A stretch of DNA of 64,000 nt from Calditrichota bacterium. Its GTDB lineage: Bacteria; Zhuqueibacterota; Zhuqueibacteria; JANLFK01; Oleimicrobiaceae. The notes under the pieces were generated by a model that saw only the letters and a program-made list of their open reading frames with translations, was not told where the DNA came from and did no database searches. The stretch's first letter is position 1; each line of letters starts with the position of its first letter. The stretch lies in assembly GCA_014359355.1 (NCBI GenBank), contig JACIZP010000177.1, positions 662 to 64,661 on the forward strand. Reading direction: 5' to 3'. The translations under genes and the position numbers were made by a program. Shown piece after piece: positions 8,947-55,640 of this stretch.

Positions 8947-11900
8947 CTACCGCAGTATCGCAAATTTGCCTACCTGGGTTTGCCCATTGGGCGTCTCCAC
9001 CACGTAGAGGTACATGCCGTAGGCCACCTCCTGCTGGTTGAAGCTCAGCATGTTCCAGTAGGTCCAGCTCTGCGTCTCATGCTCGTGGTGAAGGGTATAC
9101 ACCCGCTCTCCGGTAATGGTGTAGATGTGGATGTCGCACTTGTTGGGCAGGTTGGTGAATTGAATCTGCCGCTGGTTGGGGTCAAGCTCCCATTGCGCGG
9201 AGATGATGTACGGATTGGGCACCACGCGCACCTTCTTCAGGTCGGCCTTCTCAGCTTCCCGCACCACATAGCGGCTGGTGTTGAGGCGGAACTTGTCCCG
9301 CTTGCCCACAAAGGGCTTGCCCGAGATGATGCGCAGCACATCGCCAGTCTGCGGGGCCACTCCAGTATCCACCTTCGTGTACACCCACTGCCCATTCACC
9401 AGGGTACTGTCGATGCGCGGAGGCGGAGCCGAAAGCTTGAATGTCCAGGTAAACTTGGCCGGCTTGCCTGTCTCCACCACCTCGCGCAGTTTGAGCTCGT
9501 CACCGCTGGTCCAGGTCGCTTTCATTTGGGGCGTGGTATCCGCTGGGTTTGCGGTGAAGTGACCAAAAGCCGCCTTCTTGTTGAGCGTCAAGTTCCAGAT
9601 CTCAAAAGGCGTAATGTAGGTGGCCGGCTGAAAGGCCGTGTCTGGCTCGCTTACAAACCTAAACTCATAGTCAAAGGGAAAGTCGCCGGCTGGAGTGCCC
9701 GTGACCTGCCAGTTGCAGGGCGACTCCGTGCCGCGCTGCCCCCGGTACCAGTAGGTCGAGTCGGGGTCAAGGCTCACGGTGCTGAAGCGCTCCACCACCG
9801 TGAGCTGCAGGCCATCGAAGATCGGCCCCTCAGCAGAGGCACCCAGTGGACCGTTGTCCACCACCTGCTGACCTGTCGCCTCGTCCAGGACGTCGTAGTA
9901 CTTCACCCCCGGCTTTGCGTCGTCGATGGTAATCAGGTACGAGTGTCCAGTCACCGCGAACTGGTCAAAGATTCTGGCAGTGAGCGTGTTGCCGGTGTAC
10001 GCACCAGGCAGAGCCTCCACTGCGATGGTCGGCGCCACGTAGTTGCTAGGCGTAGGTCCAGGGGTGACCTCCACCAGGTTCGGCGCGGCCTGCGGGTTTA
10101 CCCCTTTGGCGCACTCTAACGAGTTCAGGTCCGCCCACCCGGCTAAAGCTAACGAGTCGCCACGTGCCAGGCTAATGCCCCGGTCGTAGGAGGTCACACT
10201 GTACCAATAAGTGACACCGTTCTTCACGTTGTTGTCCGTCCACGAGTGCACCAGGCCGGTATTGTTGCCGAGGTTGAGGTGCGGGTAGTTGGGGTCAAGG
10301 CCACTCACGTTATCGTTGAGGTCAAATTGCGCCACCGGGATGAACCCCACCGCGTTGCCTAATCCGTCGCGAATGATCTCGCCCCACTGGTTGTTAGTCG
10401 GGTTGGAGGTCGTCCGATAGATACGGTACCCCTGAAAGTCCTTGGCGCCAGTCATCAAGTCGCGGCTCTCCTCGGCGCTGCGGTCCCAGTAGAGGGTCAC
10501 CTTGCCGTCGCCTGGCACCGCCGTGACGCGCGGCGGCGACGGCGGGTCGGCCCCCTGGTAGAACAGCTCGTACATGAACTGCGCATTGCGCGCGTTGAAC
10601 TTGTAGTCTTCGAAATCATCGCCGGCGATCATGCAGAAGCTGAAGGTGGTCGTGTCACCGGCCGGCAGGTCGAACGGCCCTGTGCTCATGATGAACACGC
10701 AGTCTAACCCGGTGGGGAACTTTTCCCTGATCAGCTCCGGCGAATCCAGGTGCGGATTCAGCTTGCCGCTGGGGTCCGGCCAGAAGTAGTTGTCCTGCTG
10801 CTCGATGGACAGGTTCGAGGTGTCGCCGCTCATCAATTTGTACTGCTCCAGCTCCTGCTTGTCCGGGGTCAACACGCCTGGCCGTTGCTCCCAGTTGAAC
10901 CAATGCCAGTCGGTGAGCCCGAGCTGTTGTCCCTCCGGAATATCGATGATCCCGTCCTTGTCCAAGTCCACACCACCCGCGGGAGCCTTCGGCGTCTCCA
11001 GCAGCTTGAGGCCAATATACACCTTCCATGCCGCCGGGTCAGCCACGCCGCTAAAGTCGCCCGTACCCCAACGATAGTCGTAGAAGTAGGCCGTGTTGTA
11101 CCGGTAGGTGGTGTCCTTCTTGGCGTCGTACTCCGAGATCAGGAACCCCATCCAGTCCATGCGGTCGTTGTAGGTAGTGGTGAGGTTGTACTCCGGGAGG
11201 TCCGCATCGATGTAAAAGCCGAAGTAGACTCCCTTGTAATCGTAGCCAATGCCCCGTGGGTCGATCGCCTTGCTATTGTTGATGATCCGGCACGGGAAGA
11301 AGATAAAGTCCTCGGCGTAGGACCTTCCATAGGTGTAGGCAGTCACCTCCACGTCGATGCCAGTGGCATAGCCTTGGTCCACGCGGCCGTCCGCCTCGGC
11401 ATAGCGCTGACCGACGTTGTTGAGGTCATAGTCGTTCATCACGAAAAAGACGTCTTTGTCGGAGGTGAATTTGCCGGGGATGATCTCCCCAGTTTTGGGG
11501 TCCCGCGCCCACGGCCCGGGCCAGATGCGATTGCCACTGGCATCCTTCGGCCAGGAGGCCTCGATTGTGCTGGTGGCGACAATGGGCAGGCCTTTGATGC
11601 TCGACGGCGCATTGGCCATCACGTCGCCCACGGTCACGTCGCCAGAATGAAGCTTGCCGTAGGAGCCGGCCTTGGGGCCCCAGTCTGCGGCCACGTTTCG
11701 CTCCGAAACCGTGGCCCCCATGCTCACCGTGTCACCTTTGACTGGGTCATAGCGCCGCGGTGCCCATGGTCCATCCGGAATGCCCAACATTGGGAAAAGG
11801 TCCGGCACGTAGGACCACCCCTTGTAGAAAAACGCCGGCACCGAGGGTCGGTAGTCCCATGTGGACAGACGGCCGTCGTTAAACACCGCATGCTGCACCT

Positions 11901-12045
11901 TGCCCACATCCAGTATGCCCACGGCGATGTCGCGGCTGTGCATGGGCTTCTGCAGACCCTTCTGCTGTTGCTGGTTCAGGTCCGCTGCCCAGGCCAAGGC
12001 GGCCAGTAGGACAATGCAGAGGAACACGAGCGCTTCTCGTCTCAT
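8947..12045 (-). CDS. Large secreted protein with T9SS C-terminal sorting domain (function unknown)
   Basis: 1033 aa; signal peptide (ALVFLCIVLLAALAWAA); C-terminus 'CDIHIYTITGERVYTLHHEHETQSWTYWN...GMYLYVVETPNGQTQVGKFAILR' is the type-A Por secretion CTD pattern; start moved to second ATG (AGGAGA RBS). Confidence 0.6.
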   Translation of the reverse strand: MRREALVFLCIVLLAALAWAADLNQQQQKGLQKPMHSRDIAVGILDVGKVQHAVFNDGRLSTWDYRPSVPAFFYKGWSYVPDLFPMLGIPDGPWAPRRYDPVKGDTVSMGATVSERNVAADWGPKAGSYGKLHSGDVTVGDVMANAPSSIKGLPIVATSTIEASWPKDASGNRIWPGPWARDPKTGEIIPGKFTSDKDVFFVMNDYDLNNVGQRYAEADGRVDQGYATGIDVEVTAYTYGRSYAEDFIFFPCRIINNSKAIDPRGIGYDYKGVYFGFYIDADLPEYNLTTTYNDRMDWMGFLISEYDAKKDTTYRYNTAYFYDYRWGTGDFSGVADPAAWKVYIGLKLLETPKAPAGGVDLDKDGIIDIPEGQQLGLTDWHWFNWEQRPGVLTPDKQELEQYKLMSGDTSNLSIEQQDNYFWPDPSGKLNPHLDSPELIREKFPTGLDCVFIMSTGPFDLPAGDTTTFSFCMIAGDDFEDYKFNARNAQFMYELFYQGADPPSPPRVTAVPGDGKVTLYWDRSAEESRDLMTGAKDFQGYRIYRTTSNPTNNQWGEIIRDGLGNAVGFIPVAQFDLNDNVSGLDPNYPHLNLGNNTGLVHSWTDNNVKNGVTYWYSVTSYDRGISLARGDSLALAGWADLNSLECAKGVNPQAAPNLVEVTPGPTPSNYVAPTIAVEALPGAYTGNTLTARIFDQFAVTGHSYLITIDDAKPGVKYYDVLDEATGQQVVDNGPLGASAEGPIFDGLQLTVVERFSTVSLDPDSTYWYRGQRGTESPCNWQVTGTPAGDFPFDYEFRFVSEPDTAFQPATYITPFEIWNLTLNKKAAFGHFTANPADTTPQMKATWTSGDELKLREVVETGKPAKFTWTFKLSAPPPRIDSTLVNGQWVYTKVDTGVAPQTGDVLRIISGKPFVGKRDKFRLNTSRYVVREAEKADLKKVRVVPNPYIISAQWELDPNQRQIQFTNLPNKCDIHIYTITGERVYTLHHEHETQSWTYWNMLSFNQQEVAYGMYLYVVETPNGQTQVGKFAILR

Positions 12046-12090
12046 GGTCATTCTCCTGGGGTAGAGTCTACGGTTACCTTTCCTGAGCTG

Positions 12091-15000
12091 CTACATCTCC
12101 AGGCGCAGGCCCAGGTCGATGCGCCGCCGCTCGCCGTACCAGTGCGGGTGGTCATACTGCGTGCTGTACGCCGTACGGCTCATGGTCGGGCCGGGATCGG
12201 TCGGGCTGCCGGTCTCCGAATACACGGTGAGCACGTTCTTGCGGTCCAGGATGTTCCACACTCGTGCCACCAACGCGGCGCGCAGACGCCCGAACAGCAC
12301 AAAGTCCCGGCGGAACACCCCATCAAGCGTCATGCGCCACGGTCGCCGCGCGGTGTTAGGCTCCAGCGCCTGGCCGCCCACCGTCGGCGTGTAGGGGTAA
12401 CCACTGGAGCCGCGGAAGATAAACTGCAGCGTCGTGCGCTCAAACGGCCGCACACCAAAGATCTTCGGGCCTTGCCCTCTTCCCAAAGCGTAGCCAGCGT
12501 TGATGTCGATGACGTGGGTCTGATCCCATGGCATCAGGTACTCCTTCTTCGGCCGGTTCTCCTCGGTGTCACTGTCCCAGTACCCGGCCCAGGAGTAATA
12601 CTTGTTCGCCTTGGCCACAGAGTAAGTGTACTCCAAGGTACCGAAGTAGTTGTCACTGAAGCGCTTCTCCAAGCTGATGTCGATTCCCTTGGAGCTGCCA
12701 AAGTCGCTGTTGTGGATAATCGAGTAGCTGTAGAGCCCTAAGCTGTCCGGGTCAAAGCCGGTGATGCGGTAGCTCCCTGGGTCGCCGTTGTTCTCCTTGG
12801 CCCATGCCGCCACGCTCAGCTTCCAATTGTCGCCAATCTGCTGATCCACGCCCAGTTCATAGGCCTCAGTGCGCGCCGCATCCATATTGGCCCAGCCGAA
12901 CAACGGTAGGGGCGAGTTCAGGTTAAGGGTCTGGTTGGTGTACAGGTCCCGGTAGTCCGGCACCTGGAAGAAGTGGCCATAGGCAAAATGGAAGGTGGCC
13001 CGATCGGTGATCGGATGGCCAATGCCCAAACGAGGGCTCCACTGCCACTTCTTCCTCCCCGTCTGCACCTGCGAGGTGGGATCGTTCCAGTTTTCCCACG
13101 CCCGCCCTTTGGAATCGGCAAAGTCGAAGCGGATTCCGGCGTTGACGATGAGGTTTTCGAACTCCATTTTGTCCTGAATGTACGCTGAAATCTCCACGGG
13201 ATGGGTGTGGTAGTACTCCACATACGGGTTGGCAAGGTAGGGGTGCTGGAGTTCCAGGAAGAACAGGCCTCCGGATTCGCCACCTGCCAGCTTGCCAAGT
13301 AGGCTGTTCTTGTCAAAGCCGAAGGTCTTGTACTCGCCGCCAATCTTCACCTGGTGGCTGCGGTGCGCCTGCCAGGTGAGGCTGCCGGAGAGCTCGAAAT
13401 CCTGCTGGAAATTCCGCGTCCAGTACTGCGTAGTGTAACCGTAGTACACGTAGCGCGGCACCTGCACGCCATGTTCGGTGATGGTATCTACCCGGACGAA
13501 GGTAAGGTCGCACGCAAAACCACCGGTGGAAGTCCTGTCCGGGTATTCCTGTGGGGTCACCGGCCATTCGCGGGCGATCTGCTGGCGCCGGGCCTCGATC
13601 TCCGCATCGGTGGGCTTGCGACCGTTTTCCTTCTCGAACTGCTCGATCCACGTCTCGAGAAATGCATCCCTGAAGAGCTCCGAGTGGCCTGCGGTCAACT
13701 CGTGGCCATCCGGACCATACACGCGATAGCGGCGATGCTTCCAGAAACGTGAGCCGCGCAGCTCGTAAAAGAGCTTGGGGCTCACCTGGTGCGTCCAGAT
13801 CAGACCTTGCTGCTCAGTCTGGTCGGTGACGATGTGGATGCCCTGCTCGGCAAAGCGCCAGAAGTCGTCGAAGTAGCGGAACCGCCGCTGCGTCTGCCGG
13901 TGGGTGTAGACCAACTTCATGCTGGGGTTGATCCGCCAGGAGAGCTTGCCGGCAAAGTCATAGTCGGAGTTGAAGCCAAAAGCCATCCAGCCGGCAGTGT
14001 CGTCCCAACGAATCAGGTCGTTGATGCCGTCACCTTCGCCTGCGTCCTTGGTGTTCGGCTTGCGGTCCTCTCCCCAGTCGGCTTTCCAGGACCACGCCTT
14101 CCGCCAGGCGCCGGTGGCCCAGTGCCGCATCACATCGCCGACGTAGCGGTAGGTGCTGTTGTTGCGCAACTTGTTGATGTCGGTTACTTCCGTGATGATC
14201 CCTGCGTCGATCTGCTCCTGGATCTTCTTGTAGCGAGGATCCTCGGGATGGTCCAGGAGCCAATTGAGCGGTGTCGGGTCGTAAGTGTACTGGTCGTACT
14301 CCAGCACCGTGTACTTGCGGTAGCCCTGTGAGCCAGAAAGGAAGAAGCTCAGTCCCTTAACAAACGGCACCGGGCCGCCAAAGGAGCCGATGACCTGGTG
14401 GGCGTTGCGCAGGTCGTCGCTCTTGGAGCCCAGCCAGCCCGCCACCTCGCCGCTGGTCACCTCCGCCATGCCGGAGTAGTAGTCGCGCCCCTCTTTGGTG
14501 ACGATGTTGACCACCGCCGATTGCGCCTCGCCGTACTCCGCGTCAAAGTTGCCGGTGATGACCGTCAGCTCATCGATGGCCTCCCGGTTGACCGTGGTCC
14601 CCATGCCGGCGTAGATGGCATCTTCCACGTACATCCCGTCCACCATGTAGGCGATCTGGCCACTTCTGCCGCCGCGCACGTGGGTTTGGTCAAGGCCGCG
14701 CGCCTCAAAGCCGGCGATCTTGTTCTGGTAGCCTTCCATGACGGTGATACCCGACTGCAGGGTCATGATGTCCTGCACCGAGCGCACGGGCATGTTGGTG
14801 ATCATCTCCGCCGTGACCGTGGTGCGCTTGGTGGTGACCGAAGGCTCGATGAGCGGCCGCTCTGCTGTCACCTCCACGGCCTTGCCCAAGTCGATCACCG
14901 TGGGGCTGAGCTCAAAGTTGATCTTAGTGGTCAGGTCAACGCTCACCCGCACACCGGTAACCGTCTCCCGCTGATAGCCGATCATGGAAGCCGTTACCCG

Positions 15001-15225
15001 ATAGACGCCAGGCCGCACGTTGATGATGAAGTAGTAGCCGTCAGCGTCGGTTGCTGCCCCCATCTTCGTGCCCTCGATGAACACGTTGGCACCGGGCAGG
15101 GGTTGGCCCGTTTCCTTGTCCTTTACGAACCCGGCGAGCTTGCCTGTGGTGCCAGCAAACAGCGTCACCGGCACTGCCAGCACCAGGGCGAGAGCCAGGG
15201 CCAGGACTACCTGTGCGCGTTTCAC
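12091..15225 (-). CDS. TonB-dependent receptor, SusC/RagA-like (CarbopepD_reg + plug + barrel)
   Basis: GTG start 15225 preceded by AGGAGG RBS; signal peptide; 'GKLAGFVKDKETGQPLPGANVF...DGYYFI' carboxypeptidase-regulatory-like domain; TonB plug (ITGNFDAEYGEAQSAVVNIVTKEG); ~1045 aa typical of SusC-like receptors; C-terminal residue is M rather than the usual F. Confidence 0.75.
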   Translation of the reverse strand: MKRAQVVLALALALVLAVPVTLFAGTTGKLAGFVKDKETGQPLPGANVFIEGTKMGAATDADGYYFIINVRPGVYRVTASMIGYQRETVTGVRVSVDLTTKINFELSPTVIDLGKAVEVTAERPLIEPSVTTKRTTVTAEMITNMPVRSVQDIMTLQSGITVMEGYQNKIAGFEARGLDQTHVRGGRSGQIAYMVDGMYVEDAIYAGMGTTVNREAIDELTVITGNFDAEYGEAQSAVVNIVTKEGRDYYSGMAEVTSGEVAGWLGSKSDDLRNAHQVIGSFGGPVPFVKGLSFFLSGSQGYRKYTVLEYDQYTYDPTPLNWLLDHPEDPRYKKIQEQIDAGIITEVTDINKLRNNSTYRYVGDVMRHWATGAWRKAWSWKADWGEDRKPNTKDAGEGDGINDLIRWDDTAGWMAFGFNSDYDFAGKLSWRINPSMKLVYTHRQTQRRFRYFDDFWRFAEQGIHIVTDQTEQQGLIWTHQVSPKLFYELRGSRFWKHRRYRVYGPDGHELTAGHSELFRDAFLETWIEQFEKENGRKPTDAEIEARRQQIAREWPVTPQEYPDRTSTGGFACDLTFVRVDTITEHGVQVPRYVYYGYTTQYWTRNFQQDFELSGSLTWQAHRSHQVKIGGEYKTFGFDKNSLLGKLAGGESGGLFFLELQHPYLANPYVEYYHTHPVEISAYIQDKMEFENLIVNAGIRFDFADSKGRAWENWNDPTSQVQTGRKKWQWSPRLGIGHPITDRATFHFAYGHFFQVPDYRDLYTNQTLNLNSPLPLFGWANMDAARTEAYELGVDQQIGDNWKLSVAAWAKENNGDPGSYRITGFDPDSLGLYSYSIIHNSDFGSSKGIDISLEKRFSDNYFGTLEYTYSVAKANKYYSWAGYWDSDTEENRPKKEYLMPWDQTHVIDINAGYALGRGQGPKIFGVRPFERTTLQFIFRGSSGYPYTPTVGGQALEPNTARRPWRMTLDGVFRRDFVLFGRLRAALVARVWNILDRKNVLTVYSETGSPTDPGPTMSRTAYSTQYDHPHWYGERRRIDLGLRLEM

Positions 15226-15254
15226 TGCCGCGGCCTCCTCTGTTTGGTGAAAAA

Positions 15255-15270
15255 AAAAGTTGCAACTTTT
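15255..15270. promoter_or_regulatory. Perfect 16-bp palindrome AAAAGTTGCAACTTTT in the TBDR leader (candidate operator)
   Basis: Self-complementary sequence 15-30 nt upstream of the receptor RBS; a second half-site copy GAAAAGTTGCAATTCC lies at 15476-15491 next to a putative -35. Confidence 0.4.
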
Positions 15271-15300
15271 TCCCCATCTGCTGCGTCTTAAAGGTGTGCC

Positions 15301-15358
15301 AAAACAAAAAGGGCGGTCCTCTCCCCTGGATCCTTGCGCGGATTTCGGGAGACCGCCC
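15301..15358 (-). terminator. Strong intrinsic terminator/attenuator hairpin inside the TBDR upstream region
   Basis: Minus strand: GGGCGGTCTCCC-20 nt loop-GGGGAGAGGACCGCCC followed by TTTTTGTTTT; lies between a sigma70-like promoter (15444-15471) and the receptor start, or alternatively terminates the upstream operon ending at 15605. Confidence 0.55.
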
Positions 15359-15443
15359 CCTGGCTTCTGGCACAACGGGCTATTGGCATGGGTCTGGCAG
15401 CTCCTGCTAATAGCCTTTTCTTTTCTGGGGGTTTCTATGCCGT

Positions 15444-15604: not shown

Positions 15605-16168
15605 TTAAGCGCCATCAGTCTTTGCGCCTTCCATGCGTGCCCCCTCCAGGTTTGCATGTGCCAGGTGTGCACCGCGCAGGTCGGTGTCGGACAGGTCAGC
15701 CCCCGTCAAGTCCGCGCGCTCCAGGTGAGCACCCCGCAGGATGGCACCTGCCAAGTTCGCCCCCTTGAGGTTGGCGCGCTTCAGCCGTGCGTCGGTCAGG
15801 TTCGCGCCGCGCAGGTTCGCCCTGGCAAGGTGCGCCCCGAACAGAGCGCAGGCAACCATTTCTGCCCTGGCAGCCGACGCCCCCTCCAAGTTCGTGTCTT
15901 GTAGGTTCGTCTCCACCAGCACGGCACCGTCCAGGCGAGCCCGGCTGAGGTTAGCGCCAAACAGGAAGGCCCGCGTGAGATTGGCACCGCTGAGGTTGGC
16001 TCGTTCGAGGTTGGCATTCTGCAGGTGGGCATCGCTGAGGTCAGCATTGCGGAGGTCCAGGCCCCGCAAGTCTTCGTAAGACAAGTCCGCTTCTCGGAGA
16101 TCAAGGCCGGCAAGTGACTCGCCCTGTCGGGCGCGCGCCAGGATCTCCTCTCGGGTCAAACGTGCCAT
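15605..16168 (-). CDS. Pentapeptide-repeat protein
   Basis: 187 aa made almost entirely of A(D/N)LxG(A)xL quintets ([38 protein letters not shown]...). Confidence 0.8.
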
Positions 16169-16177
16169 GGGGTCCTC

Positions 16178-16516
16178 CTAAGCAAAGCTGCGCACCCCCT
16201 GTTCCTCGCTGTCGAACACCTCGAAGACGGAGTCCAGCCGGGTGATCACCAGCGGGCGGCGTGTCCCCTCATTGAGTCCCACCAGGCGCAGGTCACCGCC
16301 GGCGCTGCGCATGGTGGTCAGCCCGCTGATGAGCATGCCCAGCCCGGAGCTGTTCATCCAGGTCACCTGGCTCAGATCCACCAGCACGTTCACGATGCCC
16401 TCGCCGATGGCGCGATAGAGCATCTCGCGGAAGCGTTCGGCGTCTTTGCCTCCCATGAGCTTGCCACTCAGGCCCACGACCAACACGTCCCCCACACGCT
16501 TTTCCTCAAGCTCCAT
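16178..16516 (-). CDS. STAS-domain anti-sigma-factor antagonist (SpoIIAA-like)
   Basis: 'VVGLSGKLMGGKDAERFREML...VLVDLSQVTWMNSSGLGMLISGL' STAS fold with the phosphorylatable Ser in NSSGLG; start chosen at MELEEKRV by alignment with paralog at 55764..56102. Confidence 0.75.
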   Translation of the reverse strand: MELEEKRVGDVLVVGLSGKLMGGKDAERFREMLYRAIGEGIVNVLVDLSQVTWMNSSGLGMLISGLTTMRSAGGDLRLVGLNEGTRRPLVITRLDSVFEVFDSEEQGVRSFA

Positions 16517-16541
16517 GCTTCCTCCTGGCTTTGCCAACAGG

Positions 16542-17789
16542 CTACTCGTACCGCAGTGCTTCGATCGGATCCAGCCGTGCGGCCCTGGCTGCCGGGTAGA
16601 TGCCGAAGACGATGCCCACCAAGGAGATGAACCCCAGCCCCAACAGGACCGCCCACACCGGCACCGCAGCCGGCAGGGGCGTGAGGGCGCCGATGAGCAA
16701 CCCTATGCCCACGCCGAGCACAGCGCCGATGATCCCACCGAACTCACAGATCAACACCGCCTCCAACAGGAACTGCCCCAGAATGTCGCGACGCCGCGCA
16801 CCCACTGCCTTGCGGATACCGATCTCCCTGGTGCGCTCGGTGACCGACACCAGCATGATGTTCATCACGCCGATGCCGCCCACTAGCAGCGAGATGCCAC
16901 AAATGACCAGCGCCGCCACAAAGACAACCTTGGTCACATTGCGCCAGGTCTCCATCAACGAGTCCCTGGTCATAATTTCAAAGTCGTTGGGCTCGCCGGG
17001 CGGCACCCGCCGCACAGCCCGCATAATCCCCGTCACCTCTTCAATGGCCTGATTCAAGAGCTCGGGCCGCACTGCCTTGCAGTCCACATACACACTGCGA
17101 TTCATTCCGTAAAACTTGCCGAAGGTGGAGATGGGAATAATCACATGCGCGTCCTGGCTCTGGCCAAAGACAGACCCCTTCTCCTCCAGTACGCCGATCA
17201 CCGTACAGCGATGTCCATCGATGAGGATGTCCTCGCCCACCGCTTCGCGGAACGGGAAGAGCTGCTCGGCGAGGTCCGTGCCGATGACGCACACCTGCCG
17301 TCGCCGCTGTACGTCCATCTCGTTGATGAAGCGGCCTTCGCTCACGAACTGCCCGTCAGCCTCCTGGCGGTATTGGTCGCCGCCGAAGACCATGATGTCC
17401 GGGTTGGTCTTCTTGTCGCCGTGCCGCAGGGTCGCGCCAAAGCGAAAGACCACCGGTGACACCACGCTGACCAATGTGGCGCGCCGCTGCAGTTCCTCCA
17501 CTTCCTCCAAGGTGATGTTACGCCGGTTGCGGTATTTCTGCCACGAGTCCCCAATCTGTACTGCCGGATACTTGCGGATCTGGAAGGTGTCCGCACCCAG
17601 GACCGACAGCTCTTTCTCCCACCAGTTGTTGAGGCCCTGGATTATGGTCTGCATGCCAATGACCGCGAACACACCGATGATGATGCCCAGCGCGGTCAAG
17701 ATGGAGCGGAACTTGTTCGCGGCGATGGCGCTCACAGACATCTTTATGCTTTCGCGCAAATCCATGGCAGTGTTCGCCTTGCTCCTCAT
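16542..17789 (-). CDS. ABC transporter permease, FtsX/MacB family (MacB periplasmic domain + 4 TM)
   Basis: 415 aa; N-terminal TM then large periplasmic domain, C-terminal FtsX core 'ERTREIGIRKAVGARRRDILGQFLLEAVLI'. Confidence 0.8.
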   Translation of the reverse strand: MRSKANTAMDLRESIKMSVSAIAANKFRSILTALGIIIGVFAVIGMQTIIQGLNNWWEKELSVLGADTFQIRKYPAVQIGDSWQKYRNRRNITLEEVEELQRRATLVSVVSPVVFRFGATLRHGDKKTNPDIMVFGGDQYRQEADGQFVSEGRFINEMDVQRRRQVCVIGTDLAEQLFPFREAVGEDILIDGHRCTVIGVLEEKGSVFGQSQDAHVIIPISTFGKFYGMNRSVYVDCKAVRPELLNQAIEEVTGIMRAVRRVPPGEPNDFEIMTRDSLMETWRNVTKVVFVAALVICGISLLVGGIGVMNIMLVSVTERTREIGIRKAVGARRRDILGQFLLEAVLICEFGGIIGAVLGVGIGLLIGALTPLPAAVPVWAVLLGLGFISLVGIVFGIYPAARAARLDPIEALRYE

Positions 17790-17792
17790 CCG

Positions 17793-19028
17793 CTATTCGT
17801 AACGCAGGGCGACGATGGGGTCAAGCCGCGAGGCCTTCCAGGCCGGATAAAGGCCAGCGAACATCCCCACGCCGCATGAAAACCCCAACCCCAAGAGCAC
17901 GGCACTCGGGGCAATGGTGGCTTCCAAAACGGGCAGCCGCCCCAAGAGCATGCCCACCCCAAAGCCGAGCCCGAGGCCGATTAGCCCGCCCAGGGCGCTG
18001 ATGACCACCGACTCCACAAGAAACTGCAGCATCACATCGGAGCGGCGTGCGCCCACTGCCTTGCGGATGCCGATCTCGCGCGTCCGTTCCGTCACCGAGA
18101 CCAGCATAATGTTCATGATGCCAATGCCCCCGACTAACAGCGACAATGCCCCGATGCCAAAGGCGACGGCGTAGAGCACCCGTGTCAGATTTTTGTAGAG
18201 GTTTTCCAAAATGTCCTGGCGGTTGATGGCAAAGTCGTTCTCCTTGTCCGGCGGCACCTGCCGCACCCGGCGCAAGATGCCGATGATCTCATCTTCCGCA
18301 TCGGCAAGCCGGGAGGCGTCGACGACCTTCACCAGAATCGTCAGGCTGCGCCGCGAGCCGTACAGCTTCTGGAAGATGGAGAGGGGCACCATGACCACGA
18401 TGTCATTGTTCCGCCCGAGCACCTCCCCTTGCTTTTCCAGCACGCCGACCACGGTGAACTTGTGGTCCCCCACGGTGATCTTGCGCCCGATGGGGTCGAC
18501 GCGGTCAAAGAGCTTGGCGGCCACCTCCTGGCCGATCACGCACACCGCGTGTCGTCGCTCCACGTCCGTTTCGGTGATGAACCGACCGAACTCTGGCAAC
18601 ACATTGGCCGCGTCCTTGTAGTTGGCCTCCACGGCGTAGATGGTGACGTCGCTCAGCTTGGTGCTGCCGTACTTGACTGTGCGCCGCGTGCCGGTCATTG
18701 GCGAGACCACCGTGGCCAAGGTGCAGAAGCGCTTCAAGGCATCGGCTTCCTTGGTGGTGATGTTCTTGCGATTGCGATACTTATAGAACTCCCGCCCAGA
18801 GACCCAAGGAAACTTTTGCACGTAGAGCAAGTCAGCGCCCAGGCCGGCGATCTGCGAGTAGACGGCCTTGTTGAGTCCCTGAATGACCGACACAATCCCG
18901 GTGATGGTGGTGACACCGATAATGATGCCCAGCACGGTGAGGAAGGCGCGCATCTTGTGTGCCCACAAGGCCAACACTGCCATGCGGGCGCTGTCCCACA
19001 ATGCTGTGGCAAAACGGATCATGCTCAC
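17793..19028 (-). CDS. ABC transporter permease, FtsX/MacB family (second paralog)
   Basis: 411 aa; same architecture, 'ERTREIGIRKAVGARRSDVMLQFLVESVVI'; 4 nt from downstream paralog. Confidence 0.8.
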   Translation of the reverse strand: MSMIRFATALWDSARMAVLALWAHKMRAFLTVLGIIIGVTTITGIVSVIQGLNKAVYSQIAGLGADLLYVQKFPWVSGREFYKYRNRKNITTKEADALKRFCTLATVVSPMTGTRRTVKYGSTKLSDVTIYAVEANYKDAANVLPEFGRFITETDVERRHAVCVIGQEVAAKLFDRVDPIGRKITVGDHKFTVVGVLEKQGEVLGRNNDIVVMVPLSIFQKLYGSRRSLTILVKVVDASRLADAEDEIIGILRRVRQVPPDKENDFAINRQDILENLYKNLTRVLYAVAFGIGALSLLVGGIGIMNIMLVSVTERTREIGIRKAVGARRSDVMLQFLVESVVISALGGLIGLGLGFGVGMLLGRLPVLEATIAPSAVLLGLGFSCGVGMFAGLYPAWKASRLDPIVALRYE

Positions 19029-19046
19029 CTCTCCTGGCCCGGTCTG

Positions 19047-19727
19047 TCAGTTGATGGCTTCGTCGCGCTCGATCATGCCGTCGCGAAGGCGGATGATGCG
19101 GTTGGTGTGCTCGGCGATGTACTCTTCGTGGGTGACCAAGATGATGGTGTTCCCTGCCTCGTGCAACTTCTCGAAAATGTCCATGATTTCTTGCCCAGTG
19201 CGCGTGTCGAGGTTGCCCGTGGGCTCATCAGCCAGAATGATCGAGGGCCTGTTGACCAAGGCGCGGGCAATGGCCACCCGCTGCCGTTGTCCACCGGAGA
19301 GTTCGTTGGGGCGATGGTGCATGCGGTCGGCGAGCCCCACCTTGGCCAGCGCCTCCTCGGCCAGTTGCCGTCGCTTGCTCGCCGGCGTGCCGTTGTAGAT
19401 GAGCGGCAGTTCCACATTGTGCAGAGCGTCGGCGCGGGGCAAGAGGTTGAAGGTCTGAAAGACAAAGCCGATCTCGCGATTGCGAATCCCTGCCAGTTGG
19501 TCGTCGTCCATGGTCCCCACGTTCTGCCCTTTGAAGAGGTAGCGTCCGGAGGTGGGGGTGTCCAGGCAACCGAGGATGTTCATCATGGTCGACTTGCCTG
19601 ACCCCGAGGGTCCCATGATGGCCAAGTATTCGTTCTCCTCGACGCGCAGGGAGACACCGCGCAACGCGTGCACGCGCTCGGCACCGACCTCGTAAATCTT
19701 CACCACATTCTCAAGCTCGATCAACAT
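19047..19727 (-). CDS. ABC transporter ATP-binding protein, MacB/LolD-type
   Basis: Walker [10 protein letters not shown], signature [15 protein letters not shown], Walker [14 protein letters not shown]-loop. Confidence 0.9.
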
Positions 19728-19786
19728 CTACCACCTCGACAGTTCTGCCTTCCGCAAAGGGACGGCCCCGAAGTCGCCCCGCCCGG

Positions 19787-21072
19787 CTACTTCTTCTCCT
19801 TGGCCACGGGCAGCTTACCGGAGCTAATCTTCACGGCAGCGCCATTCTTGAGCTCTTTGGAAAGCACGCGATAGCTGCCGGTGACCACCTGTTCACCCTC
19901 GCTTACCCCGCTGACGATCTCGATGTCCGTCTCGCTGCTGATACCGGTCACCACCGGGCGCATCTTGGCGACGCCGCCTTCGACCACAAAGACCACTTCG
20001 ATCTGCTTGGGGGCGGCCTGCGCCTTCTTTTCCTCCTCAGACGGTGGCGGTCCGAAACCCTCCATGCTCTCGTCCCTGGTGCCGCCCTTCTTGCGCCGCC
20101 ATTTCGAACCGCCCGCTTGGGCCAGCATTGTCGTATCCTCGGGCGTACGCATGGTGATGCACTGGATGGGGACGTAGAGCGCCTGGTCTTTCGACTTTGT
20201 TTCGATCTCCACGGTGGCCGACATGCCTGGTCTGAGCTGGGGCACGCGGTCCACCACCGACACTTTCACCTCAAAGTTGGTGATCTCCTCCTGGGTGCCA
20301 CGCCCCCGGGTGATGGCGGTGTGGGCGACTTCACGCACCCGCCCCCGCAGTACAGTGTCGGGGATGGCGTCCACCTGGATGCGCGCGCTCTGCCCCTCGG
20401 TCACGTCCACCACATCATTCTCGTCGATCTCGGCGACCACCTCCATGCGCTCCAGGTCGGCAACCTCCATGATGACGTCTGCCTGGAACTGGGAGCCCAG
20501 GGTTATCTCACCCACCTCCTTGTTCAGCTTGATGACGGTCCCATCGATCGGCGACGTAATCGTGGTCTTGGCGAGGTTGTCCTCGGCCTGGGCCAAGGTG
20601 GCCTGGGCCTGTTCGACCTCGCTTTCGGCAAGCATTAACGCCGCCTCGACCGTCTGGAGCTGCGCCAACGAGGTCAGCTTCTGCGCGTAGAGCTCCTTGG
20701 CGCGCTCGTACTCGGCGCGCGTCTTGGTCAGGTTAGCCCGTGCCGATTTCAGGGTCGAGCGCGCCCTTTCCACTGCCGCCTCGTACTGTTCACGCTCCAA
20801 GCGAACCAGGAGCTGCCCACGTCGCACCTGTTGGCCCTCGCGCACCGGCAGCTCCACGATCTTGCCGGCCACATGCGCGGCGATGTTCACCTTGAGCTCC
20901 GGTTGCACCTTCCCCGAGCCGGAGACGATCTGGGTGATCGTCCCCCGCTTGACCGGCGCCACCGTCACCTCGAGTGCCTTCTTCTTGGCTGACTGGCTGC
21001 CGAGTATCACGGCCAGCGCTATGACAACCGCCAGGCCCACCAGGAAAATGACTGTTCTCTTCTTCTTCGCCA
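19787..21072 (-). CDS. Periplasmic adaptor subunit (MacA/HlyD-family membrane fusion protein)
   Basis: Start at MAKKKRTVIFLVGLAVV (N-terminal TM anchor); long coiled-coil segment (REQYEAAVERARSTLKSARANLTKTRAEYERAKELYAQ); beta-barrel/MP domains. Confidence 0.8.
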
Positions 21073-21102
21073 TTGCCACTTCTCCAGCTGTGTCACCTTC
21101 AA

Positions 21103-21564
21103 CTATGGGGAAAGGAGCGTGAACACCTGACTGCGCATGAATTGTCCGTCCAGATAGACCTCCACCCACCAATCACCTGCCGGTGCAGAGGCCGCCGTAT
21201 CCAAGTAGAACCAGGTGACCGCATGCCCGCTGTCGGAGGTCAACTCCACCTCGCGATGGCCCTGGAGCTGCCCCTCGGGGTCGAACCATTTGGCCCCCAC
21301 TGTGTGCGTCTTGTACCAGTTGCCCCACCTGATCCAGAGGTAGACGACGTCATCCACCCGAAACGTGGCAGTCACCAGGACCGGATGCGACTCTTCGTCC
21401 ACCGCGACGCAGGTGAAGCACTCGATGATGTACGGCTCATCCTTGGTGGGCGCCACTACGCCGCCCCCTTCGCCCTCTATTTTCTCGCAACCGGGCAGCC
21501 CGGCCAGCCCTAAGAGGCAAGCAAGGAGGCCAACAATCGAGCCGCGTGCCATTGGCAACACCAT
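21103..21564 (-). CDS. Small lipoprotein, hypothetical (between TolC and adaptor genes)
   Basis: 153 aa; signal peptide ending LAGLPGC (probable lipobox Cys); no recognisable domain. Confidence 0.45.
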   Translation of the reverse strand: MVLPMARGSIVGLLACLLGLAGLPGCEKIEGEGGGVVAPTKDEPYIIECFTCVAVDEESHPVLVTATFRVDDVVYLWIRWGNWYKTHTVGAKWFDPEGQLQGHREVELTSDSGHAVTWFYLDTAASAPAGDWWVEVYLDGQFMRSQVFTLLSP

Positions 21565-21575
21565 GGGAGCCTTTC

Positions 21576-22964
21576 TCAGGACCCCTGGCCGACTTTGCCC
21601 AAGCTGCCCATCAGAGCTTCGAGAGTGGCCCGAGCAACTTGGCTATCGTATTTGGCGCCGATCACGATCTGCTTGGCGCGGGTGACCGCCACGCGCGCGT
21701 CGTTGATCTCCAATAGCGTGCCAGACCCCACCCGGTAGCGCTCCTCTGCCAAGCGCAGGTCCTCTTCGGCGGCCAGCAAGTTGTCGCGATTGATGCGGGC
21801 GATCTCCTGCACCGCCTCAAGGTAGAGGAAGGCCTGGTTGACGCGCAGCGCCAACTGTCGCAATTTGTCGGCATGCTCTTCCTGCACGCTGCGGTAGGAA
21901 GCGGCCTCGCGCTCCACCGCCGCCTTGTCCGCAAAGCCCCGGAAGAGGTTCAGGTCCACCTGCATGCCCAAGGAAAGGTAGTAATCTCGATTCAGGTCCT
22001 TCGAGTAGACTTTGTCGAAGAACTCGTTGTCGCGCGAATACGTAAGCCCGAGAGAAAAGGTGGGCAAGTAGGCCAGTTTGGCCGCGCGCACCCCCAGGCG
22101 AGCGGCCTCTAACGACTGCCGTAGCTCGCGCAGCTCCGGGTTGTTCTGCAAGGCCACTTCCAGCACCTGTTCGCGGGTGTACGGAAACGGCGTCTCGGCC
22201 GCCTCCACTTCCACCACCGAGAGTTCCGCCTCCGGATCGCGCCCCATGGCGACGTTCAGGTTCCCCTTGGCCGCACGCACCTCGTTTTCCTGGGAGATGA
22301 CGTTGATTTTGGCTTCGCCCACGGTCACCCTGGCCTTGTACACATCGCCCTGCGCCGCTGCGCCAAGCTCAAACATGCTCTGCGTACGCCTGAGCTGTTC
22401 TTCCGCCGACTGCAGCGCTTCCCGATATACCTCCAAAAGCTTCGTGGCTTTGAGCAGGGCGAAGTATTTCGTGTACACATCCAGGACGACTGCCTGCTGG
22501 GCCGCGATGAACGCCTGCTCGGCTGCTTGCTGGCGCGAACGCGCCTGCTGCAGGAGGCTGATGCTCCGCCCCCAGTCGAACAGGTTCTGCGCCACCGACA
22601 GCCTGGCGTAATGGCTGTTGCGTTCCACGCCCTTTTGCACAATCTCGCGCTGTTCGTAGATGACCTGGCCGGTCTGCGGATCATAGCCCACCGGCACGTC
22701 CATCTTGCGAATGCGGTCGCCTTGGATGAACCGCCCCGAGGCGAAACTGGCGTTCACGTGGGGCAGGAGGCCGGACCACGTGCCCAGCACGGTGGCCTCC
22801 GCCAGATCCACCCCAAACTCCGCCTTGCGCACCCCGGCGTTCTTTTCGAGGGCCAGGGCGACACAATCCTCCAAGGTGAAAGGGCGCCCCGCCTGTTGCG
22901 CCTCAAGCCCCCCAGCTGCCGCAAGCACGCACAGAGTTGCAACGACCACACCAACTCTTGTCAT
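21576..22964 (-). CDS. TolC-family outer-membrane efflux protein
   Basis: 462 aa; signal peptide; 'LTLEDCVALALEKNAGVRKAEFGVDLAEA' OEP-repeat start, two repeat halves with coiled-coil heptads. Confidence 0.8.
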   Translation of the reverse strand: MTRVGVVVATLCVLAAAGGLEAQQAGRPFTLEDCVALALEKNAGVRKAEFGVDLAEATVLGTWSGLLPHVNASFASGRFIQGDRIRKMDVPVGYDPQTGQVIYEQREIVQKGVERNSHYARLSVAQNLFDWGRSISLLQQARSRQQAAEQAFIAAQQAVVLDVYTKYFALLKATKLLEVYREALQSAEEQLRRTQSMFELGAAAQGDVYKARVTVGEAKINVISQENEVRAAKGNLNVAMGRDPEAELSVVEVEAAETPFPYTREQVLEVALQNNPELRELRQSLEAARLGVRAAKLAYLPTFSLGLTYSRDNEFFDKVYSKDLNRDYYLSLGMQVDLNLFRGFADKAAVEREAASYRSVQEEHADKLRQLALRVNQAFLYLEAVQEIARINRDNLLAAEEDLRLAEERYRVGSGTLLEINDARVAVTRAKQIVIGAKYDSQVARATLEALMGSLGKVGQGS

Positions 22965-22991
22965 CTCTTTGCTCCCGGAATGCCCGCCGGC

Positions 22992-23702
22992 CTAAGTGAG
23001 CGCCGCGGTGATCGCCGCCGCAGCCAGCGCGTAGACGATGTAGAGCGCCACCACGCCGGTGGCTGCCTTCTTCACGGTGAAGCGGTAAATGACCGCCATG
23101 CCAATGCACACCAGCACCAGCTCCCACAGCGAGAAGACATCGGTGCGCGCCAGGAGCTGGTAAAGAAAGGTGCCCTTCTGCTCGGGGTCAAGGAACGCGG
23201 CCAGGCTGGTCTGCACGTTCACTGTGCCCCGGGAGAGCATGAGCGGCGTCTTGACAATGGTGGCCAGGACACCGATCAGCGAGGTCCAGGTGTACATGGC
23301 AAACACCTTCTTGAAGTTGCTCGCGCCACCCAGGACGATGTTTCCTAAGAAAAGGAGGGCCAATGTGACGACCACTATGACGACCACCGCACCCACTGGT
23401 GCCATCACCGGGCCGGTGATCCGGCCGATCTTGGCCCCCACTTCCAGAGCCCGGTCTGCTTCCTCTGGAGTCATGCCCCGCTGTTCGATCAGCTTGTCCC
23501 GCTGCTTGGCCATGCCCTCTTCCATGGCCATCGGCGTGATGAAGATGGCGGCAACCACGGTGGCAATGACCACCAGCACCAGCGGCAGAACCCACCGGGG
23601 CCGGCGGTCGATCGCCTCATAGGCCTCACGCGGACTGACGAAAATGTTGACCAACGTCCCCAACAGGGAATCCCCCTGCCCAGACACTTGTGGATTCTCC
23701 AT
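22992..23702 (-). CDS. Yip1-domain membrane protein
   Basis: 236 aa; 'LLGTLVNIFVSPREAYEAIDRRPRWVLPLVLV' plus five TM helices typical of the Yip1/DUF1282 family. Confidence 0.6.
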   Translation of the reverse strand: MENPQVSGQGDSLLGTLVNIFVSPREAYEAIDRRPRWVLPLVLVVIATVVAAIFITPMAMEEGMAKQRDKLIEQRGMTPEEADRALEVGAKIGRITGPVMAPVGAVVVIVVVTLALLFLGNIVLGGASNFKKVFAMYTWTSLIGVLATIVKTPLMLSRGTVNVQTSLAAFLDPEQKGTFLYQLLARTDVFSLWELVLVCIGMAVIYRFTVKKAATGVVALYIVYALAAAAITAALT

Positions 23703-23877
23703 GCTCGTTTCCTCCGCAGCTTAGTCCTTCTGCAGCGCAGCGACCACCTGCTCTGCCTGCATGGCGCCGGCACTGCAACCACTCACCGAGTATACACTTC
23801 ACCATCGGCAGTTATTGCAAGCCAGCTCCACCAAAAAAACCAGAAGATGGAACGAAAAACCGCCACAAAAGTTTCGG

Positions 23878-25319: not shown

Positions 25320-26993
25320 CTACAACTTCCCCGACCGCAGTATGGCCACCACTAACCACACCCCCAGCAGGCCGGCAAATGCATAGCCCACGATCCCCAG
25401 GACCGAAATACCCAGCAGCGACGGCCCCACATGCGCCGCGATAATCATGGAGGAAGCAACGATGAGCGCAGCGATGATCAGGCTGAAGGAGAGCCGGTTA
25501 GAGGAACGGTCAATCTCCCGAATGAGGTTCTCCAACCCTTGATGCCTAAGCTCGGCGCCGATCTTTCCGGCGCTCACACGTCGCAGCAGCACCTCCATTT
25601 CGTGGGGCAAGGTCAAGGCGAGCTGGTACAGGTCGCGCAGGCCTCTTCCCAGCTGATAGGCAACCCGTCCCGGTTCGAACTGCCGCCACATGAGCTTGCG
25701 CGCATAGGGACCGATGGCCGCCGCAAAGGAAAAGTCGGGGTCCAGCTTCTCGGCAATGTCCTCGTAGGAGCCCAAGGTCTTGCCCAAGAGCATCAAGTTG
25801 GAGGGGACGCGCAGCCGGTGCCGCGCCAAAACCGCAACGGCATCGTCGAGTACCGCCTTCATCCGCAATTTGCCCAAGTTGACGCCGTAGTAGCGGTCGA
25901 TGAACTCGCCGATGTCCAGGCGCAGCAGCCGCTCGTCGCTGCCCTGGGGCACAATCCCCATCTGGGCCATGACGCGCAGGATGAGGCTCACGTCGCGCCG
26001 GGTCACCCCCACCAGAAGGTCCGCGAACAGAGCAAGCATCTGGTCGTCCAGCCGACCCATGATGCCAAAGTCCACCGGGGCGATCGTCCCATCTCTGCGC
26101 ACCAGCAGGTTGCCAGGGTGCGGATCGGCGTGGAAGAAGCCGTCTTCAAAAACCTGCTTCAGGACAAAGTCGGTGCCGCGCCGCACCAAGGCCTTCAGGT
26201 CGACGCCCATGGCGCGGAGACTCTCCACGTCGGAGATCTTTACTCCCTCCACATACTCCAGCGTCAGCACCCGGGACGTCGTCAGCTCCCAAAACACGGC
26301 CGGCACATGTACTCCCGGGAGTGTGGCGCAGTTGCGGGCGAAGAGCTCCACATTGCGCGCCTCGCTCATAAAGTCCAACTCGCGCCTGGTGGTCCTGGCC
26401 AACTCCTCCACCATCCCCACCGGGTCGAACTGGTGGCTCTCCGGGACATGCCGTTCGATGAGGCGCGCCAAGTCCAAGAGGATCTCCATATCCACTTCGA
26501 TGAGCTCGCCGATGCGCGGTCGCTGGATTTTGACCACCACTTCCTGTCCATCCACGGTGCGGGCACGATGCACCTGGGCAATAGATGCCGATGCCAGCGG
26601 CTCGTTGTCGATGGAAGCGAACCGCGCGAGAGCCGGTTCCTGGAGCTCCTGGTGCAGTGTCTGCTCCAGAACAGAAAACGGCTCCGGCCGCACCTGATCC
26701 TGGAGGAGGGCAAGCTCGGCAAGAAGGTCGGCAGGCACCAGGAACGACCGCGTGCTGAGCACCTGGCCAAGTTTCACGAACGTGGGGCCAAGCTCCTCCA
26801 AGGCCATGCGAATGCGCCTGGCGGTGGTAACGCCTTCCACCCCACGCCGCACGCGCGCAAGTCGCCGCCCCAAGTGCAAGTAGGCAGCCAGGTCCAGCCT
26901 TTCCGCCAGGTCAGCGAACCCGTACTTGATGAGCACCATGGCGATCTGGCGGTAGCGCTTGAGGTGGCGATATCGCCGGTGAATCGTTAGCAC
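25320..26993 (-). CDS. ubiB: UbiB/ABC1 (AarF) atypical kinase family protein
   Basis: 'EELGPTFVKLGQVLSTRSFLVPADL' ABC1-family signature; two C-terminal TM helices; GTG start with AAGGAG RBS placed at 26993 (ORF track extends further to 27095). Confidence 0.8.
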   Translation of the reverse strand: MLTIHRRYRHLKRYRQIAMVLIKYGFADLAERLDLAAYLHLGRRLARVRRGVEGVTTARRIRMALEELGPTFVKLGQVLSTRSFLVPADLLAELALLQDQVRPEPFSVLEQTLHQELQEPALARFASIDNEPLASASIAQVHRARTVDGQEVVVKIQRPRIGELIEVDMEILLDLARLIERHVPESHQFDPVGMVEELARTTRRELDFMSEARNVELFARNCATLPGVHVPAVFWELTTSRVLTLEYVEGVKISDVESLRAMGVDLKALVRRGTDFVLKQVFEDGFFHADPHPGNLLVRRDGTIAPVDFGIMGRLDDQMLALFADLLVGVTRRDVSLILRVMAQMGIVPQGSDERLLRLDIGEFIDRYYGVNLGKLRMKAVLDDAVAVLARHRLRVPSNLMLLGKTLGSYEDIAEKLDPDFSFAAAIGPYARKLMWRQFEPGRVAYQLGRGLRDLYQLALTLPHEMEVLLRRVSAGKIGAELRHQGLENLIREIDRSSNRLSFSLIIAALIVASSMIIAAHVGPSLLGISVLGIVGYAFAGLLGVWLVVAILRSGKL

Positions 26994-27066
26994 GTCTGCT
27001 CCTTTGCTTGCGGTCGGCTCCCGGGTCTCTGCTTCCGCGAAGGAGCCCAACTGCCGGTGACGAGTT

Positions 27067-27111
27067 AATTTAACAAACGCCCGACCAAAAATCAACGCGT
27101 TTGTGGGTGGC
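27067..27111. repeat. Intergenic motif copy A (AATTTAACAAAC...AAAAATCAACGCGTTTGTGGGTGGC)
   Basis: Near-identical to copy B at 44694-44729 (AATTTAGCAAAA AAAAATCAAGACGTTTGTGAGGGTGGC); both lie in divergent promoter regions. Confidence 0.5.
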
Positions 27112-27451: not shown

Positions 27452-27535
27452 TACACGCTGTGAAGCGGGTGGGATGAACGGTATCGGTCGTCACTCTCTG
27501 CTTCAGGGGCACAACCATAAGCAGTGGAGGCTGAG

Positions 27536-54365: not shown

Positions 54366-55640
<1,275 letters not shown>

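Follow-up and report, generated by a model that had tools for sequence, protein, structure and literature searches.

A conserved STAS and pentapeptide-repeat gene pair in the operon of a MacB-type tripartite exporter from a Calditrichota bacterium

The window analyzed here is a 64-kb stretch of contig JACIZP010000177.1 from an uncultured Calditrichota bacterium of the FCB group. From position 23702 to 15605 its minus strand carries nine genes, arranged head-to-tail with every gap at 59 nucleotides (nt) or less. They encode a Yip1-domain membrane protein, a TolC-family channel, a lipoprotein, a periplasmic adaptor, an ABC ATPase, two permeases (A and B), a STAS protein and a pentapeptide-repeat protein (PRP), the last two being the main subject of this work (Table 1). 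Judged from gene content and spacing, the nine genes of region 15605-23702 form one operon, which encodes a tripartite ABC exporter of type VII (MacB superfamily). An initial annotation of this DNA had set the unit at 15605-22964. The genes that it listed there, from TolC to PRP, were all recovered by Pfam with the domains it gave, the lipoprotein being without a family match. That unit was too short at its 5' end, as it should also include the Yip1 gene, which lies 27 nt before the TolC gene and keeps this place ahead of TolC in most related loci.

The likeliest start of the STAS gene was ATG 16516, which is preceded by an AGGAGG ribosome-binding site and leaves 25 nt after permease B. The 4-nt spacing previously given for that junction would need a TTG start at 16537, while the 9-nt spacing given between STAS and PRP was correct, with the ribosome-binding site of the PRP gene overlapping the STAS stop codon. 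The promoter of the operon is probably in the 175 nt that separate the Yip1 gene from that of the CCA-adding enzyme, since this is the only sizeable gap upstream. A scan of that gap returned no consensus promoter site, and no promoter-like site was found before STAS. Promoter and terminator scans combined with folding revealed no significant hairpin or terminator inside the operon, and folding of the 3' flank after the PRP gene gave no convincing terminator (z 0.29).

Table 1. Features of the window, with the operon genes in order of transcription followed by other features (aa, amino acids).
Feature	Position	Strand	Remarks
Upstream gap of 175 nt, CCA-adding enzyme gene to Yip1 gene	23703-23877	-	candidate promoter region
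Yip1-domain, YknW-like polytopic membrane protein, 236 aa	22992-23702	-	operon gene 1; Pfam Yip1 E 8.4e-18
TolC-family outer-membrane channel, 462 aa	21576-22964	-	Pfam OEP E 4.6e-65, two stretches
Lipoprotein, 153 aa	21103-21564	-	lipobox LPGC; no family match
Periplasmic adaptor (membrane fusion protein), YknX/MacA type, 428 aa	19787-21073	-	from ATG 21073; Pfam HlyD_D23, HlyD_3, Biotin_lipoyl_2
Stand-alone MacB/LolD-type ABC ATPase, 226 aa	19047-19727	-	Pfam ABC_tran E 1.5e-33
Permease A, 411 aa	17793-19028	-	MacB_PCD E 1.6e-43, FtsX E 1.9e-23
Permease B, 407-415 aa	16542-17789	-	likely start ATG 17765; MacB_PCD E 4.2e-39, FtsX E 8.9e-23
STAS protein, SpoIIAA/RsbV type, 112 aa	16178-16516	-	PF01740 E 7.8e-17
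PRP, 187 aa	15605-16168	-	no signal peptide; PF00805 E 1.7e-55
TonB-dependent receptor with CarboxypepD_reg domain	12091-15375	-	
Protein of 1034 aa	8947-12051	-	weak C-terminal signal of the type IX secretion system (T9SS)
PorV-like beta-barrel	7837-8883	-	
ABC1/UbiB-like kinase	25320-27095	-	
SecD	57111-59219	-	
SecF	56130-57071	-	
Second STAS copy	55767-56102	-	between SecF and PurA genes
PurA	54366-55637	-	

The proteins of the transporter core could be assigned with matches to the outer-membrane channel (OEP) and adaptor (HlyD/RND_mfp) families, and with a gene order kept in relatives, as found in tripartite efflux pumps. The TolC-family channel scored 169.8 bits with TIGR01844, under the family cut-off, and the adaptor 194.6 bits with TIGR01730, above the cut-off of 94.9. 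An adaptor orthologue 90% identical occurred in locus L084, and this orthologue has precomputed matches to BSH_YknX, Beta-barrel_YknX and YknX_C. The ATPase is a separate polypeptide, unfused to a permease, with intact catalytic motifs (Walker A at residue 39, LSGGQ at 143, Walker B at 164). Permeases A and B were 47.8% identical to each other and both matched PF12704 and PF02687, as MacB-superfamily (type VII) permeases do; homologues of permease B were 405-408 aa long. In a mirror-tree analysis the two permeases co-evolved strongly (distance-matrix r 0.92, partial r 0.77), as expected of a heterodimer. The arrangement of one ATPase with two distinct permeases noted in the initial annotation holds. 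The lipoprotein matched nothing in Pfam, NCBIfam or PADLOC, and its orthologues were found at the same position only in L014, L020, L022, L023, L029 and L084; it appears to be an extra pump part of the sub-lineage to which the window belongs. By domain content, the pump combines a TolC channel and an adaptor of YknX/MacA type with a stand-alone ATPase acting as a homodimer, a heterodimer of two paralogous permeases and a YknW-like protein.

The Yip1/YknW-like first gene links the system to the YknWXYZ type, a four-component ABC exporter of Bacillus subtilis and B. amyloliquefaciens that protects against the SDP toxin. In that exporter, YknW is the Yip1-family protein and is reported to modulate the assembly of YknXYZ (PMC4887032). 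The two systems appear alike in that a Yip1-family protein is encoded together with a MacB-like FtsX permease, a separate ATPase and a membrane fusion protein of apparent YknX type. However, the window system is Gram-negative with TolC, has two permeases instead of one, and also includes a lipoprotein and the STAS-PRP pair, and YknW_fam, the sole NCBIfam match of its Yip1 protein, remained below cut-off (94.5 bits against 110). With MacAB-TolC it shares the TolC channel, a MacA-like adaptor and permeases built of a MacB periplasmic core and FtsX, and MacB was the best NCBIfam match of both permeases and, through its N-terminal half, of the ATPase. In Escherichia coli, by contrast, MacB is a homodimer with the ATPase fused N-terminally to the permease, and MacAB has no Yip1, STAS or PRP partner. 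An E. coli-type MacB was rejected on the separate ATPase, the two permease paralogues and NF007826 scores far below the 966-bit cut-off. LolCDE also has one ATPase gene and two paralogous FtsX-family permeases, but lacks an adaptor or TolC partner, and it was rejected because TIGR02212 (LolC/LolE) gave the permeases 56.1 and 41 bits against a cut-off of 362. On these comparisons the pump is best described as a Gram-negative, heterodimeric version of the YknWXYZ/MacAB-TolC design.

Forty-four STAS homologues were aligned, and the alignment was used to retrieve 80 loci from contigs representing one genome per species, onto which the window proteins were mapped by tblastn. The same operon order, (ABC1)-CCA-Yip1-TolC-(lipoprotein)-adaptor-ATPase-PermA-PermB-STAS-PRP, was carried by 33 of these 80 STAS-anchored loci, mostly labeled KSB1, with one CSSED10-310 and several unclassified or mislabeled metagenome-assembled genomes (MAGs). 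A MacB-type permease adjoined the STAS gene in all 33, and the PRP gene adjoined STAS in every one of the 31 operon loci having at least 250 nt of downstream flank. The closest genome fragment found (94% permease identity), from Candidatus Oleimicrobiaceae of Candidatus Zhuqueibacterota, formerly KSB1, had the same synteny, and the window STAS was 100% identical to a protein with the NCBI label 'Calditrichaeota bacterium'. Among operon loci, identity to the window STAS was just 41-57%, indicating that the linkage to the pump is old. An alternative order, PermA-STAS-PRP-PermB, with gaps of about 1-40 nt, was present in L012, L015, L027, L030, L043 and one locus found independently, L086, so that in six operons the pair lies between the permease genes. 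Gaps from STAS to PRP ranged from -8 to 118 nt (median about 12 nt), and such short or overlapping junctions suggest translational coupling of the two genes. Conserved linkage was found and a promoter of their own was not, which upholds the proposal of the initial annotation that STAS and PRP are tied to the transporter. These results imply that both are dedicated parts of the operon and not passengers, and that the pair has been inherited with the pump across dozens of species.

Permease B was used as a second anchor to find pump operons without the pair. Two 'Marinimicrobia' contigs contained Yip1-OEP-adaptor-(300-aa protein)-ATPase-PermA-PermB and neither STAS nor PRP; the protein of about 300 aa between adaptor and ATPase (L081 7012-7917) is unrelated to the window lipoprotein. 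L085, L088 and the KSB1-labeled L089 had a six-gene pump core lacking STAS-PRP, and L087 was a four-gene pump paralogue among radical-SAM genes. In a neighbour-joining tree of ATPase, permease A and permease B, L085, L088 and L089 formed the sister clade of the other operons, all of which carry STAS-PRP except the two Marinimicrobia operons nested inside them. This nesting could reflect a secondary loss of the pair or a tree artefact. The distribution as a whole identifies STAS-PRP as an accessory of one transporter clade, stably inherited there.

Other genes were observed near two of the operons that lack the pair. In L081 the gene after permease B (11492-12361, plus strand) encodes an HPD (J-domain-like) motif followed by leucine-rich repeats, and the next gene a 111-aa membrane protein. 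This pair of small genes occupies the STAS-PRP position, at a 265-nt gap from permease B that makes its link to the pump uncertain. In L089, two PRP genes of larger size, for 394 and 282 aa (12109-14187, plus strand), lie about 3 kb downstream, past sigma-54 activator and response-regulator fragments; these PRPs are probably unrelated to the 187-aa PRP clade.

The STAS protein scored 66.4 bits with TIGR00377, the NCBIfam anti-sigma-antagonist superfamily model, above the cut-off of 53.45. Its Ser56, within the motif WMNSSGLG, is equivalent to SpoIIAA Ser58 and was invariant among the 44 homologues. Because the genome scan used this motif as its search pattern, invariance in the loci so retrieved is partly by construction; the equivalent serine was also present in the permease-anchored L084 and L086 and in the word-based homologue set. 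Profile searches matched TM1442, SpoIIAA and RsbV at E 1e-19 to 1e-11, and the AlphaFold2 (AF2) model of the protein, with a pLDDT of 95, gave Foldseek TM-scores of 0.86-0.88 to SpoIIAA and TM1081. An identity as MlaB was rejected on the lack of an mlaB_1 match, on E values near 0.01 for MlaB chains and on TM-scores of 0.54-0.61. From sequence and model, the operon STAS is thus of the SpoIIAA/RsbV type, sharing its fold and a predicted phosphorylatable serine at the N-terminus of helix alpha2. What sets it apart from that type is an Arg-Pro pair at 87-88 specific to the transporter-linked clade and the absence, both from the window and from 31 related loci, of a cognate RsbW/SpoIIAB kinase or PP2C phosphatase. 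When the 64-kb window was searched by tblastn with RsbW and PP2C sequences of Ignavibacteria, and its large open reading frames (ORFs) by Pfam, no RsbW-type kinase or PP2C phosphatase was found, and among the 31 related loci no sigma factor, anti-sigma factor, kinase or phosphatase was conserved nearby. The initial annotation was right that no such enzyme accompanies STAS in the window, but in expecting kinases beside STAS proteins it overlooked MlaB, which is a STAS subunit of an ABC transporter, MlaFEDB (PMC7367683).

The remaining 47 of the 80 loci contained a STAS paralogue about 49% identical, which had neither permease nor PRP beside it in any of the 42 loci with adequate flanks. Its conserved context was secD-secF-STAS-purA, and the window holds such a copy as well. 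Both kinds of STAS occurred in the same genome for the window and for the locus pairs L002/L013, L021/L057, L026/L037 and L008/L053, with L021 and L057 both in OY843751.1. A neighbour-joining tree of STAS proteins placed the transporter-linked sequences (G1) in one clade, apart from the secDF/purA-linked ones (G2). The two groups were cleanly discriminated at two positions only, being Arg87-Pro88 in G1 and Ser-Leu in G2, and WMNSSGLG was kept in both. Loci from KSB1, Calditrichota and Rhodothermales shared the secD-secF-STAS-purA arrangement, and those from Ignavibacteria had the STAS-purA pair back-to-back with a cluster of ECF sigma, PP2C, RsbW and RsbV genes.

The PRP matched PF00805 with 184.5 bits over six stretches, placing it in the pentapeptide-repeat family, whose tandem A(D/N)LXX repeats build a right-handed quadrilateral beta-helix. 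Matches to solved PRP structures covered residues 22-186, the closest being consensus-designed PRPs and cyanobacterial PRPs such as HetL and Np275/276, and the sequence had a clear 20-residue periodicity. Searches for related proteins with the PRP itself were dominated by long generic and giant PRPs, among which 187-aa orthologues did not surface, and the clade was sampled through the STAS-anchored loci. The 29 orthologues aligned without internal gaps; Arg6 in the N-terminal cap region was invariant, and the C-terminal 15 residues varied in sequence and length. The alignment was read in the 20-residue register of a quadrilateral beta-helix, and the entropy of outward residues was compared between faces. 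One face had a mean of 0.5 bit, against 1.85-2.3 bits for the other three (Mann-Whitney p 2.6e-9). The near-invariant face comprises the pentapeptides ADLSY, AHLQN, AFLFG, TNLQD, CALFG, ARLKR and AHLER, with D28/S30/Y31, H48/Q50/N51, F68/F70/G71, N88/Q90/D91, F110/G111, K130/R131 and H148/R151 as conserved residues. About seven coils long, with predicted exposed Phe68, Phe70 and Phe110 and with Lys130, Arg131 and Arg151, it bears the signature of a conserved protein-binding surface. None of the PADLOC defence models matched the STAS, PRP, lipoprotein or Yip1 proteins.

Residues tracking the presence of the pair were screened as those at least 93% conserved in 29 operons with STAS-PRP and different in at least five of six without. 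In the ATPase these were E80, E85 (replaced by K/R/L), E186 (K/R/Q/D) and R221 (S/E/K). Those in the permeases were all conservative (D155 to E in A; I272 to V/L and L347 to I in B), and none was detected in the adaptor (0/76), TolC (0/28) or Yip1 protein (0/11). The only charge-changing positions lie in the one cytoplasmic subunit, which fits a docking of the pair on the ATPase. A precedent for a STAS protein acting on an ABC ATPase is MlaB, which binds and regulates MlaF; its Thr52, the equivalent of the phospho-serine, is at the center of the MlaF interface, and a phosphomimetic substitution weakens binding (PMC7367683). As with MlaB, the window STAS is a small single-domain protein encoded in an ABC-transporter operon. 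The two systems nevertheless differ, the transporter here being of the MacB/FtsX and not the MCE/MlaE class, with an ATPase lacking an MlaF-like C-terminal extension, a STAS of SpoIIAA/RsbV type and a PRP partner.

Based on these data we tentatively favor, with reservations that keep it well short of a firm assignment, the view that STAS and PRP are cytoplasmic regulatory subunits acting on the ATPase. Both proteins are predicted to be cytoplasmic and would act as a regulatory pair on the pump from within the cytoplasm, with the ATPase dimer as the likeliest target. For the PRP, the single invariant face would serve as a rigid docking surface, and the acidic ATPase residues would face basic residues of that face or Arg87 of STAS. 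STAS might bind and release the PRP or the ATPase according to the phosphorylation state of its serine, which a kinase and a phosphatase encoded at unlinked loci would set. In this way the activity or assembly of the pump would be adjusted to cell state post-translationally, as proposed for MlaB on MlaF. A more specific form, namely a phosphorylation-controlled clutch in which PRP docks on the ATPase dimer around E85/E186/R221 and STAS binds or releases PRP by Ser56 phosphorylation, is a candidate that we consider rather unlikely as stated.

Several observations weigh against action of the pair on the ATPase. The close relatives L085, L088, L089, L081 and L082 have the pump without STAS-PRP, which means that the pair is dispensable for basic pump function. 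The argument from ATPase residues is post hoc and has phylogeny as a confounder, and the six operons behind it come from about three lineages and represent few independent losses. In the mirror-tree analysis, which did recover the permease A-permease B control, neither STAS nor PRP had a specific partner (partial r of 0.09 between STAS and PRP, 0.16 between STAS and ATPase, 0.19 between PRP and ATPase), and the top partial correlations of STAS and PRP were with the periplasmic MacA and outer-membrane TolC, which is physically implausible. In both sequence and fold the STAS resembles SpoIIAA/RsbV rather than MlaB, and neither in the window nor in the 31 loci is a kinase or phosphatase linked to it. 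For the PRP, AF2 prediction from a single sequence gave a poor model (pLDDT 59.7) that was unreliable in its C-terminal half, with values below 50 at the C-terminus.

Alternatively, the pair could have its output elsewhere. As a partner-switching-type module co-expressed with the pump, STAS-PRP might relay a signal such as envelope stress or pump level to another target, for instance a sigma or anti-sigma factor, an enzyme or a second-messenger enzyme, and leave the transporter itself untouched. The phospho-serine motif, the SpoIIAA-like fold and the passed anti-sigma-antagonist model agree with such a role, as do the absence of specific co-evolution between the pair and any pump subunit and the fact that a sister paralogue in Ignavibacteria adjoins the ECF sigma/PP2C/RsbW/RsbV cluster. 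It is nonetheless hard to explain, without a direct functional tie, why the pair is embedded between permease genes and strictly co-inherited with one transporter clade. Considering also that the charge-changing ATPase residues track the pair and that no sigma, anti-sigma, kinase or phosphatase gene is conserved nearby in the 31 loci, we regard signaling to another target as distinctly unlikely. Inert synteny, in which two unrelated genes, STAS and PRP, would have stayed behind the pump genes by chance, is highly improbable. The CCA-adding enzyme and polyprenyl synthase genes are likewise syntenic with the pump and have no obvious functional link to it. Chance retention would, however, have to account for the unbroken co-occurrence despite such low protein identity, for two gene orders that both keep the pair inside the operon with short, coupling-type gaps, and for a dedicated STAS paralogue distinct from the housekeeping copy of the same genomes.

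Efflux combined with target protection, as in mcbEFG, would have the pump expel a toxin while the PRP shields its target (e.g., DNA gyrase) and STAS modulates the PRP as MfpB does MfpA. The McbG, AlbG, Qnr and MfpA systems resemble the window in having a small cytoplasmic PRP beside an ABC exporter, which in the microcin B17 operon gives dual immunity (PMC6722960), and the window PRP was weakly similar to MfpA and Qnr structures (E 1e-10 to 1e-12), with most orthologues mildly acidic (isoelectric point 4.7-6.9). Membership of the Qnr/MfpA/McbG-type family was rejected, as scores fell far below the NCBIfam cut-offs for Qnr (50.4 bits against 240), MfpA (61.2 against 360) and HetL, the AlbG structure matched at E 6.8e-4 only, and consensus-designed, HetL and Np275/276 PRPs were closer. 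The variable C-terminal tail gives no sign of a conserved dimerisation element, and conservation is concentrated on one face with exposed Phe and Lys/Arg, in place of an overall DNA-like acidic surface. Moreover, the operon is in core-genome synteny phylum-wide (CCA-adding enzyme, ABC1/UbiB, polyprenyl synthase), with no biosynthetic or toxin gene cluster nearby. MacB-type pumps take their substrates from the periplasm or membrane, and a cytoplasmic target is less obvious for such a pump. The Qnr/MfpA-style protection suggested in the initial annotation thus gained no positive support, and target protection appears improbable.

Within the literature library searched, no paper combined a STAS domain or anti-sigma antagonist with pentapeptide repeats, and the matches for PRP together with MacB came from an E. 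coli transcriptome study on another subject. The core of the transporter is ordinary, and as far as could be found the conserved STAS and PRP accessory pair is probably undescribed. Post-translational regulation of bacterial ABC exporters is little known, MlaB-MlaF being among the few cases that involve a small protein, and MacB-family pumps (MacAB, LolCDE, FtsEX, YknXYZ) are central to envelope biogenesis and resistance. PRPs occur in very large numbers, and apart from topoisomerase protection and HetL the majority still lack an assigned function. The pair offers candidate surfaces in one PRP face, three or four ATPase residues and Ser56, together with natural controls in the sister operons that lack it and, for specificity, in the paralogous STAS of the same genomes. 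If the clutch existed, its PRP would be the first one shown to serve as subunit or regulator of an ABC transporter, and the pair would be the first case of partner switching with a tripartite efflux pump as its direct output. Should its role be limited to signaling or to protecting a target, the pair would still provide a genomic context for an orphan PRP clade.

Upstream of the operon are the CCA-adding enzyme and ABC1/UbiB-like kinase genes, the latter preceding the pump also in L009, L026 and L084. Directly downstream of PRP or PermB, 20 of 31 loci had a polyprenyl synthase gene, as did L085 and L088, which also have UbiA upstream. An FMN_dh gene (possibly IDI-2-like) was syntenic with the pump as well. 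This synteny with isoprenoid and quinone genes could point to an isoprenoid lipid as substrate, or could simply reflect a conserved core-genome order. Scanning the window for Rfam families and tRNA genes found nothing. Downstream of the operon, 230 nt with a promoter-like site separate the PRP gene from that of the TonB-dependent receptor, and the receptor, 1034-aa protein and PorV-like genes (7837-15375) also follow the operon in L084. The window has two very large ORFs, at 27524-31981 (plus strand) and 50071-54513 (minus strand). One product, of 1485 aa, had no Pfam match; the other, of 1480 aa, has five lamin-tail domains, CARDB, FlgD_ig and a T9SS-type C-terminal signal, and is probably a secreted cell-surface cargo.

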